The notes beneath the pieces were generated by a model that made no database searches, was not told the origin of the DNA, and saw only the letters and a list, made by a program, of their open reading frames with translations. From Candidatus Nanoarchaeia archaeon (GTDB taxonomy: Archaea > Nanobdellota > Nanobdellia > Woesearchaeales > GW2011-AR4): a stretch of 64,000 bases of DNA. The position numbers and the translations under genes are program-made. This document shows, one piece after another, positions 32,568 through 62,052 of the stretch. The DNA lies in the NCBI GenBank assembly GCA_035293285.1, contig DATDOM010000046.1:5982-69981 (forward strand), read 5' to 3'. Each line of letters opens with the position of its first letter. Position 1 is the stretch's first letter.

Positions 32568-33401
32568 TTATTTTTCAGTTCCGGTTATTGAAAGCAGGCT
32601 TCCGCTTCCGAGTGCAAGAGGCATCTTTCCGTCCCATTTCTGGATTGTTAAATAATCAATATATCTTGGGCTTTTTGACAGTTCTTCGTTAACTATCCTT
32701 ATTGCCTCTGCCTCTCCTTTGGATTGGACAATTTTCTGCTGCGCCTGGAATTCTATTACTTTCAAATTGTTTTGTTCCTTTAAGGCGTTTTGCTCAGCAG
32801 TTACTTTTTGTTCTATTGCTAAGTTGAATTCCTTGCTGAAATCAAAATTAGTTACTGATAAATCATCCAATGCTATGAATGATGTGGAGAGCCTGTCCCT
32901 CAGGGTGTTTTTTATTTGTTCCTTTACAAGTTCTCTTTTTGTAATCAGCTCTTCAGCAATGTATTTTGCAGTTATCGATTTTACAACTTCTTGAATCGAC
33001 GGGCTGATAATCCTATCCTCATATTCAGGCCCGATATTTTTAAATAAATCATTGACTTTATCCTTGTTAATATGGTAATTTAATGCAATTTCTGCCGAAA
33101 CTATCTGCAAATCTTTTGAAGCAGCTGCTGCCTGCGCATGAAAAACTCTGGTCCTTACTTCAAACCTGTATGGCTTTTCAAAGAAAGGTATTTTCAGGTG
33201 CATGCCTTCTTCAAATGTCTTTTCTTTGACTCCGTAAAAAGAATTGAATATGACTCCTTTGTAGCCCGCGCCAACCACAAAAAATGAATTCCATAGAGTA
33301 ATTATAATCAATAATATAATAAGTAGCTTTTTGATAGTGTTCAAGGATATTCGCGTATTTGTAGGTTTTTTTGTGTTTGTTGAAGTATCTTTTTCTGCCA
33401 A
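32568..33401 (-). CDS. prohibitin/HflC-like SPFH-domain protein
   Basis: TM then ...AGYKGVIFNSFYGVKEKTFEEGMHLKIPFFEKPYRFEVRTR...AASKDLQIVSAEIALNY. Confidence 0.85.
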   Translation of the reverse strand: MAEKDTSTNTKKPTNTRISLNTIKKLLIILLIIITLWNSFFVVGAGYKGVIFNSFYGVKEKTFEEGMHLKIPFFEKPYRFEVRTRVFHAQAAAASKDLQIVSAEIALNYHINKDKVNDLFKNIGPEYEDRIISPSIQEVVKSITAKYIAEELITKRELVKEQIKNTLRDRLSTSFIALDDLSVTNFDFSKEFNLAIEQKVTAEQNALKEQNNLKVIEFQAQQKIVQSKGEAEAIRIVNEELSKSPRYIDYLTIQKWDGKMPLALGSGSLLSITGTEK

Positions 33402-33439
33402 TTTAACTCACCCCCTTAGTATTTTATGATTAATATAAA

Positions 33440-33588
33440 TGCGGAGGACAGGATTCGAACCTGCGTAAGCACTAAGCTAATAGGTGTCTTCTAGTCATTG
33501 CATTGCTGCTCGTAACACCAATCAATGCTGGCCTAAGCTTGGACGGAAATATTTCCTCTATCCCGTTTGGCCACTCCGGCACCTCCGC
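33440..33588 (-). tRNA. class II tRNA, proposed tRNA-Leu (UAG) with two intervening sequences
   Basis: Minus-strand read: GCGGAGG-TG-CCG..CGG-G-ATAG[19 nt]G-CTTAGG[46 nt]A-CCTAT-TAGCTTAGTGCTTAC-GCAGG-TTCGAAT-CCTGT-CCTCCGC-A. The acceptor, D and T arms are unambiguous. The anticodon-arm parse is my inference. Confidence 0.65.
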
Positions 33589-34126
33589 ATTTGAGTTTTA
33601 GATAGATTCTTCCAAGCTTTTCTTTATTCTGCAAAGGGAAAGTGCTTAAAAATTTATCTATTTGATTCTTATTAATCCTTATGCCATAAAATTCTTTTTT
33701 GTATTTTTTGTTAATCCAGGATTCTTTTGAGTGAGTTATGTTAAATTCCGTTAGTAAATTGCTTACACCATCACAAAGTCTTTTGCTAGCTGTTGTGAAG
33801 CCTAAAGTATTTGATCTAAAACCTCCATCTGTGTCAAAATATCCTGCTAAGAAGTGCTTCTTTATCTCTTGTGATGATTTTTCAATTGAAGTTGGTACAA
33901 AAACCCTATTACTTTTTGCACCTTTTGGTATTTCCATTCGTTCATTAAAAAATTTGAATAATTCTTTATTTCTTATCCTTAAGTATAAGCGAGGTATCCT
34001 GTTTCCTCTTTTGAGAGGTTCCTTAGGGTTAGTTCTAGTGAATATAAGAGTTTTAATAAGTTCAGAAAGGTAATTTAAGTACAACCTGTCAGACATATCA
34101 ATAGTTATTGCATAGTCTTTTGACAA
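33533..34126 (-). CDS. LAGLIDADG homing endonuclease (frame stays open upstream to 34261)
   Basis: Second motif HFLAGYFDTDGGF lies inside the track ORF. First motif AYLSGVIIGDGN lies in frame upstream of the TTG start. The C-terminal 19 codons overlap the tRNA 5' half. Confidence 0.8.
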   Translation of the reverse strand: MSKDYAITIDMSDRLYLNYLSELIKTLIFTRTNPKEPLKRGNRIPRLYLRIRNKELFKFFNERMEIPKGAKSNRVFVPTSIEKSSQEIKKHFLAGYFDTDGGFRSNTLGFTTASKRLCDGVSNLLTEFNITHSKESWINKKYKKEFYGIRINKNQIDKFLSTFPLQNKEKLGRIYLKLKCGGAGVAKRDRGNISVQA

Positions 34127-34371
34127 ATCATTTTTCTTAGATTTTACATAATTAGAAATATTGCCGTCTCCTATTATTACTCCTGATAAATAAGCAGTTT
34201 TGGTAGTTAAAGTTAACGATGGCTGTATTTTTGTAGTTCTCTCAAGTACTAATATTATTAATTAAATTATGAATAGTTGCTTTAAATAATATACGCAAGG
34301 AAGTCCAGTGACAGATTCAAACTAACAGCTTTTTAGATAATTATAAATATAACAATGCCAAAAATCAAGGT

Positions 34372-35031
34372 ATGGATGTTGCAGCGTGCATTAGGTCAAG
34401 AAGGTCTGTAAGAAAGTACAAGCCAGTTGACATTCCATGGGATAATGTTGTCCAGATTCTCGAGTCAGGAAGGCACGCGCCGTTTGCAGGAAACATACAA
34501 AACTGCAAGTTCATAGTCTGCAAGAACGAAGACAAAAGAGTTGCAATTGCAGAGGCATGCTCAAAGCAGTATTGGATGCAGGACGCGCCAATCCACATTG
34601 TAATTGTCGCAGAGCCTGAAAAATCAGAAAGATATTACGGGACAAGGGGCTCAAGATTATATACGATACAGGGCGCGGCAGCAGTAATCCAAAACATGCT
34701 CCTGACAGCCCATTCCTTAGGCCTTGGCGCATGCTGGGTCGGCGCTTTTGACGAGGAAGAAATAAGAAGGCTGTGCAACCTGCCTGAGCATGTCAACGTG
34801 CAGGGAATAATCACTATAGGGCACGCTGCCGAAACTCCTGAACCGCCGCCAAAATACAGGATTGAGCACACAATGTTCTTTGAAAAATGGTGGGGCAGGA
34901 TTGAAAGCCCAAAATCAGGCTTAAGCTACTGGAGCCCGTATGTCGACAAGATGGTAAAAAACACAAAGAAAGGCATAAAGAGGGCCGTTGATAAGGTAAA
35001 AGGGAAAGGAAAGAAGAAAGATGGAAAATAA
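34372..35031 (+). CDS. nitroreductase-family protein
   Basis: IRSRRSVRKYKPVDIPWDNVVQILESGRHAPFAGNIQ...; Lys-rich C-terminal tail. Confidence 0.8.
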   Translation: MDVAACIRSRRSVRKYKPVDIPWDNVVQILESGRHAPFAGNIQNCKFIVCKNEDKRVAIAEACSKQYWMQDAPIHIVIVAEPEKSERYYGTRGSRLYTIQGAAAVIQNMLLTAHSLGLGACWVGAFDEEEIRRLCNLPEHVNVQGIITIGHAAETPEPPPKYRIEHTMFFEKWWGRIESPKSGLSYWSPYVDKMVKNTKKGIKRAVDKVKGKGKKKDGK

Positions 35032-61871: not shown

Positions 61872-62020
61872 GCGAAGGTAGCCAAGCGGCCTAAGGCGAG
61901 CGTTTTTGTTGCGTCTGCAACAATACTCGATGCTGCAAAGCAGCATTATGAGCCAAGCGATTGGCGATGACATGTTGCGCTGGGCCCGCTTCATCGGCGG
62001 TTCGAATCCGCCCCTTCGCT
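61872..62020 (+). tRNA. class II tRNA-like gene with ~65-70 nt of unresolved intervening sequence (identity not assigned)
   Basis: GCGAAGG-TA-GCC-AAGCGGCCTAA-GGC-G ... GGCGG-TTCGAAT-CCGCC-CCTTCGC-T. The middle holds three hairpins (ttgttgc/gcaacaa, tgctgc/gcagca, gccaa/ttggc). I could not derive a canonical anticodon loop. Confidence 0.55.
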
Positions 62021-62052
62021 CTTTAATTAAAACAACGGAGGAAAAATAAGAA

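Follow-up and report, generated by a model that had tools for sequence, protein, structure and literature searches.

The DNA analysed here, referred to as the window, is a stretch of 64,000 nucleotides (nt) from the genome of a Candidatus Nanoarchaeia archaeon of the Woesearchaeales (GCA_035293285.1, contig DATDOM010000046.1). On its minus strand, an open reading frame (ORF) for a putative LAGLIDADG homing endonuclease (33533..34261; 242 codons plus TAG, measured from stop to stop) enters, from the 5' side and with no gap, a gene for tRNA-Leu(UAG) (33440..33588, 149 nt) composed of three exons and two introns. The two genes overlap by 53 nt, codons 225-242 and the stop lying within the tRNA gene, and the stop codon TAG (33535-33533) is exactly anticodon positions 34-36. 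This last point had been proposed in a sequence-only reading of the locus and is confirmed by the parse of the tRNA.

Exon 1 (33558..33588, minus strand as for all features of the locus) encodes tRNA positions 1-30, comprising the acceptor 5' strand, the D arm and nucleotides 1-4 of the anticodon stem. Exon 2 (33532..33538) consists of G31 followed by CUUAGG (positions 32-37), with the anticodon UAG at 33535-33533, while exon 3 (33440..33485) supplies A38, the 3' strand of the anticodon stem, a long variable arm, the T arm, the acceptor 3' strand and the discriminator A. Once 33557-33539 and 33531-33486 are excised from 33588-33440, an 84-nt product is obtained which ARAGORN folds as tRNA-Leu(UAG), with a GCGGAGG/CCTCCGC acceptor pair, a class II D arm, a TTCGAAT T loop and a variable arm resembling that of the tRNA-Leu(GAG) encoded in the same window. 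Together with manual inspection of the bulge-helix-bulge (BHB) motifs, this fold bears out the two-intron parse suggested earlier. A Leu(UAG) pattern search gave a single match in the source genome, which is 85% complete. The gene was missed by default ARAGORN on the unspliced sequence, and an Rfam scan at E <= 1 returned no tRNA match in 33000-34600. With introns allowed, ARAGORN called a tRNA-Val(gac) with one 67-nt intron, a mis-call which made the manual two-intron parse necessary; single-intron or shifted-intron parses leave an anticodon-stem A:C mismatch or a lost nucleotide. In the same mode, the program lists many tRNAs with inserts of 50-108 nt, at 61872-62021 of the window (plus strand) and on other contigs. 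Several of these long-insert calls are clearly mis-typed, and the tRNA set of this genome requires manual parsing.

Intron 1 (33539..33557, 19 nt) interrupts the gene at the non-canonical position 30/31. There, the minimum-free-energy fold of the precursor contains a textbook BHB motif, in which the helix GGAU:GUCC is flanked by the bulges AG/A and AA/G and followed by an outer hairpin GGAA-UUCC. All four pairs of the central helix can form in 33 of the 34 different alleles, the one exception being a parser error, and the helix displays compensatory changes (GGAU:GUCC, GGCC:GGCC, GGCU:GGCU, GACC:GGUC) that covary with tRNA positions 25-28. Pairing and covariation across these 34 alleles provide good evidence that the 30/31 insert is a real, spliced intron. 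Intron-less alleles with identical exon sequence exist (e.g., locus L083), and the source genome encodes a tRNA-splicing endonuclease (PF01974 match, E = 4.9e-28, contig C80). Intron 2 (33486..33531, 46 nt), at the canonical position 37/38, adopts a relaxed BHB motif in which three of the four central pairs are formed (C32:G, U33:A and U34:A, with A35 opposite G) and the 5' bulge measures 3-4 nt. Of the 21 orthologous loci that were parsed, 14 contain this intron and 7 do not. Additional inserts occur in this group: a third one, of 30 to >100 nt, lies in the T loop or T stem at many loci (L019/L082, L020, L034, L036, L037, L060, L066, L069, L071), and the tRNA-Leu(UAG) of L020 has a further insert in the variable arm, which brings the number of inserts per tRNA gene up to four.

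The ORF matches Pfam LAGLIDADG_3 in two stretches (E = 1.8e-20, 73.4 bits for a cut-off of 22.5). Its translation contains two LAGLIDADG motifs, motif 1 AYLSGVIIGDGN (34160..34195), with the catalytic Asp32, and motif 2 HFLAGYFDTDGGF (33818..33856), with the catalytic Asp145. Residues G31, D32 and G33 of the first motif (GDG) and F142, D143, D145, G146 and G147 of the second (TDG, D145) are invariant among 22 orthologues. An AlphaFold model computed with these 22 orthologues as input (predicted local distance difference test, pLDDT, 88.8; predicted template modelling score, pTM, 0.86) has a tandem alpha-beta-beta-alpha-beta-beta-alpha fold, for which Foldseek retrieved I-DmoI (E = 9e-11, target-normalised template modelling score 0.80) and also the intein endonuclease PI-PfuI, despite a sequence identity to archaeal single-chain endonucleases (I-DmoI, I-Tsp061I and PI-PfuI) of only ~20%. 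The tail encoded by the tRNA gene (approximately residues 225-242) is modelled with low confidence, with pLDDT blocks of 72, 48 and 35 from residue 221. Motifs, Pfam match and predicted fold thus point to a single-chain, I-DmoI-like LAGLIDADG homing endonuclease. That its gene is free-standing, outside any intron or intein, is confirmed by the complete tRNA downstream and by a putative promoter of its own, described below. Relatives of the ORF belong to Candidatus Woesearchaeota and Nanoarchaeota, DPANN archaea.

In the window copy, no ATG, GTG or TTG was found in the ORF ahead of motif 1, the first canonical start being a TTG at 34126 that lies past this motif. An alignment with the orthologue of the congener G008 (74% identical) shows that the Shine-Dalgarno sequence GGTGAT and the ATG of the latter are both mutated in the window copy. 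Ratios of nonsynonymous to synonymous substitution rates (dN/dS) of the window ORF against two congeners are 0.17 and 0.13, and values of 0.13 to 0.23 overall show that the endonuclease gene has been functional for most of its past. Accelerated evolution of the start-less copy was not seen, its mean identity to outgroups being 47.3% vs 48.1% for G008, and its branch does not exceed those of its two congeners in length. As this copy is otherwise devoid of visible degradation, it either lost its start recently or is translated from a start of another kind. Judging from its sequence, the window copy is probably inactive or barely translated and decaying, with its promoter kept. Other orthologues have decayed as well, through frameshifts (L033, L034, L041) or, as in the window, loss of the start (L044).

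The arrangement had been noted as an oddity of one locus; it turns out to be the rule for the family. All 28 Woesearchaeota-type orthologues for which downstream sequence is available (loci L018-L046 minus L025, which ends within the tRNA), 36-74% identical, lie directly 5' of a tRNA-Leu(UAG) bearing the 30/31 intron. The 5' edge of the tRNA-Leu(UAG) gene is the fixed home of this family in Woesearchaeota. The position of the stop codon is variable: in the 21 cleanly parsed orthologous loci, the ORF stops within the tRNA gene in 18 and ahead of it in 3, and the stop is the anticodon TAG in 4, a TAG or TAA of the 5' exon in 3 and a codon of the first intron in 9. A special meaning of the stop-anticodon coincidence, found in only 4 of 21 loci, is hence not supported, and it is better regarded as an accident of frame favoured by this tRNA than as a device. 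The ORF has no stop of its own and terminates at the stop which the tRNA gene happens to provide in its frame, here the anticodon TAG.

A homologue from Micrarchaeota (38% identical; L047:2375-3319, contig PFPF01000034.1) stops 1 nt short of the 3' end of an opposite-strand gene for tRNA-Leu(UAG). The T arm of this tRNA, which is the part proximal to the endonuclease gene, is interrupted by 48 nt. Since this homologue approaches the same tRNA species from the opposite direction, the family would seem to recognise the tRNA gene as such. Beyond the L047 endonuclease gene, there is an orphan 3' fragment of a tRNA-Leu whose T stem is different, and which looks like the scar of a replacement event. 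Short duplicates of the tRNA 3' end, made of a T-arm remnant and the acceptor strand, were also observed 60-120 nt downstream of the intact tRNA-Leu(UAG) at five other loci (L023, L029, L030, L044, L079) and may have remained from past events of gene conversion or insertion.

The endonuclease gene is distributed patchily: of the 301 genomes sampled from the order, 13 have it, and no two of these belong to the same family. Within the genus, it stands beside the tRNA in three species (the source genome G000, G008 and G054), while 19 sampled tRNA-Leu(UAG) loci are devoid of it; these genus loci comprise 3 with gene and intron, 10 with the intron only and 9 with neither. An allele table was established by combining a tRNA pattern search with a gene search in the 301 genomes, using the best 150 of 187 pattern matches; G029 and G298, which fall outside these matches, were scored from their loci. 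Among the matches listed, and with these two genomes added, the 30/31 intron is present in all 12 gene-bearing alleles, from 12 families, and absent from none. Among the gene-less alleles listed, it is present in 20 and absent from 110. The association of gene and intron (12/12 vs 20/130) has a Fisher's exact p = 2.6e-9 among these matches, a value that is overstated as the genomes are related. All three allele states occur within each of four families (f1, f52, f60 and f90), and the intron lineages of gene-bearing alleles are also met with in intron-only ones, the intron of G043 being 2 nt off that of the window. A homing-type relation to the tRNA gene, raised in the earlier reading, fits this pattern of a patchy gene always found on tRNA-Leu(UAG) and always with the 30/31 intron.

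The putative promoter of the endonuclease gene (34281..34310, minus strand) is formed by a CACTGGAC motif at 34310-34303 followed by a TATA box, TATTTAAA, at 34288-34281. Both motif and spacing are common to 11 other LAGLIDADG genes of the source genome and to the G008 orthologue, and a CACTGGAC-type motif was found upstream in 12 of 29 homologous loci, including Micrarchaeota L047. The distance from this motif to the matched LAGLIDADG coding region downstream is 65-200 nt, and in the source genome the motif precedes the TATA box by ~15 nt. Its recurrence in distant DPANN lineages may reflect a common binding site for a regulator, or the motif may belong to the mobile unit.

Gene-bearing and gene-less alleles also differ in the promoter of the tRNA. 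In 15 of 19 gene-less alleles, a TTTTAAA box is located between -37 and -28 relative to the first base of the tRNA, whereas no TATA-like element was detected between -40 and -24 in 26 of 29 gene-bearing alleles. Homology between the two types of alleles starts at the first base of the tRNA. As the TTTTAAA box is mostly missing from gene-bearing alleles, the simplest reading has the cassette take the place of the tRNA promoter and the endonuclease transcript give rise to the tRNA, which is then probably transcribed from the endonuclease promoter. The suggestion of the sequence-only reading that endonuclease mRNA and pre-tRNA are co-transcribed is thus plausible. Retention of the promoter in the start-less window copy would be explained in the same way. 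The codons for 'QNKEKL' were considered as a conserved tRNA promoter and rejected: their synonymous sites and their distance to the tRNA vary, as for a protein motif. At some loci, a mini tRNA-like remnant (the acceptor 5' strand, a few bases, then GTTCGTGACCTCCGCTCA) was observed 10-45 nt upstream of the tRNA (L069 and L084; similar remnants in L061, L064 and L070), and upstream of gene-less tRNA-Leu genes such GTTCGTGACCTCCGCTCA-type remnants occupy the usual place of the TTTTAAA box.

Similar contacts with tRNA genes were found for other LAGLIDADG genes of the source genome. Of ~13 such genes (contigs C25, C28, C37, C46, C47, C66, C93 and C102, with C46, of 87.7 kb, represented outside the window; loci L087-L097), 6 of 13 end on or inside a tRNA gene, namely C13:2527-3234, C37:8567-9241, C102:10880-11551, C25:19386-20204, C28:4036-4794 and the window ORF. 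Three of the six read into the 5' end of a tRNA on the same strand and three converge on the 3' end of a tRNA on the opposite strand; the chance of one such contact is roughly estimated at ~0.002 per gene. Eleven LAGLIDADG genes share the promoter CACTGGACA plus TATTTAAA and a ~135-nt leader of ~80% DNA identity, while the six compared proteins of the leader-bearing genes are only 24-30% identical. This leader folds into two hairpins, one of them long and the other sequestering the ribosome-binding site GGAGG, with compensatory changes in six pairs, and an Rfam scan of four leader-bearing loci matched no family. The structured leader was not found in the window locus, and 1 of 29 homologous loci of the tRNA-Leu family has it.

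Based on these observations, we propose, with moderate confidence, that the ORF belongs to a family of free-standing, I-DmoI-like homing endonucleases specific for the tRNA-Leu(UAG) gene, that the 30/31 intron splits their presumed target and that the cassette supplies the promoter of the tRNA. In this mechanism, the enzyme would cut intron-less tRNA-Leu(UAG) genes, presumably in the conserved DNA of the anticodon arm near 30/31, a site suggested by the position of the intron and its association with the gene. Repair of the break from an occupied allele would always copy the intron, and would copy the ~750-bp endonuclease gene only when the conversion tract crosses the 30-nt exon 1. The intron, by splitting the target, would render its carrier immune, and the host tRNA-splicing endonuclease would excise it from the RNA, so that the tRNA remains functional. 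Three allele classes would result: susceptible (neither intron nor gene), occupied (intron and gene) and resistant empty (intron only). The need for a tract across exon 1 would account for the observed excess of intron-only alleles with the native promoter over occupied ones. The tRNA would be released from the endonuclease transcript by RNase P and splicing, and the RNase P cut at 33588, which would sever the message upstream of its stop codon, may limit expression of the endonuclease.

Several points weigh against this proposal. Among the matches listed, 20 of 32 intron-bearing alleles are gene-less, which implies that the intron persists, and perhaps spreads, without the gene. The association itself could reflect common descent of a linked unit rather than protection. 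Given the kinship of the genomes, the Fisher p makes the association look stronger than it is, and the counts rest on the best 150 of 187 pattern matches. The window copy, having no start codon, may do nothing today. Regarding the promoter, an A-rich stretch within the ORF, AATAAAGAAAAG (-40 to -29), could by its sequence be a weak internal promoter of the tRNA. Lastly, comparison with related genomes, which had been recommended as a means to define the borders of the insertion, placed the right border at the first base of the tRNA and left the other border undefinable, since the sequences upstream vary from one genome to another: an additional ORF of 254 codons is present in G008 and lipoprotein-like ORFs in G024 and G058, and the genes flanking the locus in the window (SPFH, nitroreductase) were not found at the locus in sampled congeners.

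Linkage without protection deserves the closest consideration among the alternatives, and we regard it as rather unlikely. According to this explanation, the family arose once on an intron-bearing allele as a selfish tRNA-associated endonuclease with its target elsewhere, in the 5' flank or another part of the gene, and the intron merely co-travels with the 5' half of the tRNA. Such a history agrees with the gene-tRNA junction, which is inherited as a unit in all orthologues, with intron lineages common by descent, as illustrated by their recurrent ATGATTCTAATC start, and with the orphan tRNA 3' ends downstream of several loci, which suggest whole or partial replacement of the tRNA. However, the contrast between gene-bearing and gene-less alleles listed, spread over 12 families, is hard to account for by linkage alone if recombination in the 30-nt exon can split gene from intron, and the many intron-only alleles show that the two are separable. 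The position of the Micrarchaeota homologue on the other side of the tRNA, with an insert in the T arm nearest to the gene, also weighs against this explanation. Alternatively, the protein might be a domesticated, non-mobile helper, for instance one that acts on the non-canonical intron in the manner of a maturase or regulates how tRNA-Leu is expressed. Purifying selection on the gene and its strict co-occurrence with the intron speak for such a helper, and LAGLIDADG maturases do exist, the bI3 maturase being among the fold matches (rank 37). We nonetheless judge this role improbable, as most intron-bearing alleles listed do without the gene, which is restricted to 13 of the 301 genomes and occurs in frameshifted or start-less copies; moreover, the intron has a perfect motif for the ordinary splicing endonuclease that the genome encodes, and both catalytic Asp residues of the ORF are invariant.

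The sequence-only reading had also considered a former longer intron. In a scenario of this kind, the ORF would have originated within a long intron of a tRNA or rRNA gene and been stranded outside by rearrangement. To our knowledge, the archaeal LAGLIDADG genes described in the literature are otherwise intron- or intein-borne, and the closest solved relatives of the ORF are I-DmoI and intein endonucleases. This origin is nevertheless very improbable: no exon or tRNA fragment was found upstream of the ORF, the tRNA 3' of it is complete, and all Woesearchaeota-type orthologues examined are free-standing with a promoter of their own, none being inside a BHB intron. That an ORF and a tRNA without any relation were brought together by chance or by faulty assembly, which would be conceivable in a metagenome-assembled draft genome, is refuted by the data. 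The arrangement recurs in independent assemblies, contigs from two other public runs span the ORF-tRNA junction with zero differences, and 6 of the 13 LAGLIDADG genes of the source genome abut tRNAs. Contigs from four DNA runs yielded no variant of this strain that lacks the gene, and apparent 'joints' within the tRNA proved to be intron-less tRNA-Leu genes of other organisms.

The proposed homing mechanism, in which the 30/31 intron protects its carrier, bears on the open question of how introns come to interrupt archaeal tRNA genes at unusual positions and why they are so numerous in some lineages. Published ideas, such as intron 'transposition' or protection from integrating elements, name no agent. 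Here and throughout the family, a single nuclease lineage is linked to a single tRNA gene and a single position of the intron, and three allele states coexist within single families. As a wider and more tentative hypothesis, to which we give somewhat less than even confidence, non-canonical archaeal tRNA introns may have been created and spread by free-standing, trans-acting endonucleases, one family per tRNA gene. The intron would then be an immunity device, intron-only alleles a resistant 'empty' state, and the nuclease hard to silence through the promoter of an essential single-copy tRNA. If true, collaborative homing, described for group I introns of phages, would also encompass archaeal introns that are spliced by proteins, and a selfish gene would have taken over the promoter of an essential tRNA.

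With regard to known systems, the window ORF shares with I-DmoI, I-Tsp061I and PI-PfuI the same fold and two motifs with catalytic acidic residues. While these enzymes are encoded inside rRNA introns or inteins, the window ORF is free-standing, with its own promoter, and associated with a tRNA. A free-standing homing endonuclease associated with tRNA genes is reportedly also found in phage T4, where SegB, a GIY-YIG enzyme encoded in the tRNA gene cluster, is said to favour the inheritance of its own tRNA region. SegB differs from the present system by its nuclease family and phage host, and has neither an intron partner nor an ORF-tRNA overlap.

On the side of the introns, tRNA genes with non-canonical BHB introns, several per gene, have been reported in Thermoproteales and in ARMAN/DPANN archaea, and have been attributed to intron 'transposition' or to protection from integrating elements, with no nuclease named (PMC4033280, PMC3239211). 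In contrast to these reports, a specific nuclease gene is here tied to a specific intron position. Full-text literature searches returned no paper linking free-standing LAGLIDADG genes to archaeal tRNA introns; a paper on Woesearchaeota found in these searches deals with group I introns in rRNA genes, and the word 'homing' is absent from a 2014 review of tRNA gene diversity.

The arrangement is most reminiscent of the collaborative, or trans, homing of phages, as exemplified by F-CphI, encoded beside the psbA intron of cyanophage S-PM2, and by T4 mobE, which mobilises an intron with a defunct I-TevIII (PMC6083498, PMC2790892). In both cases, a free-standing endonuclease gene adjoins a gene with an endonuclease-less intron which is thought to split the target of the nuclease, and the intron-only alleles expected from such a process are seen here. 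The two systems differ in the nature of the intron, since the partner in the window is a 19-nt BHB intron excised by a host protein and not a self-splicing group I intron, so that the archaeal system is a variant of collaborative homing rather than a member. They differ further in that the host gene is an archaeal chromosomal tRNA gene and the nuclease a putative LAGLIDADG enzyme, and in that the ORF is fused to the 5' end of the tRNA, whose promoter it appears to supply.

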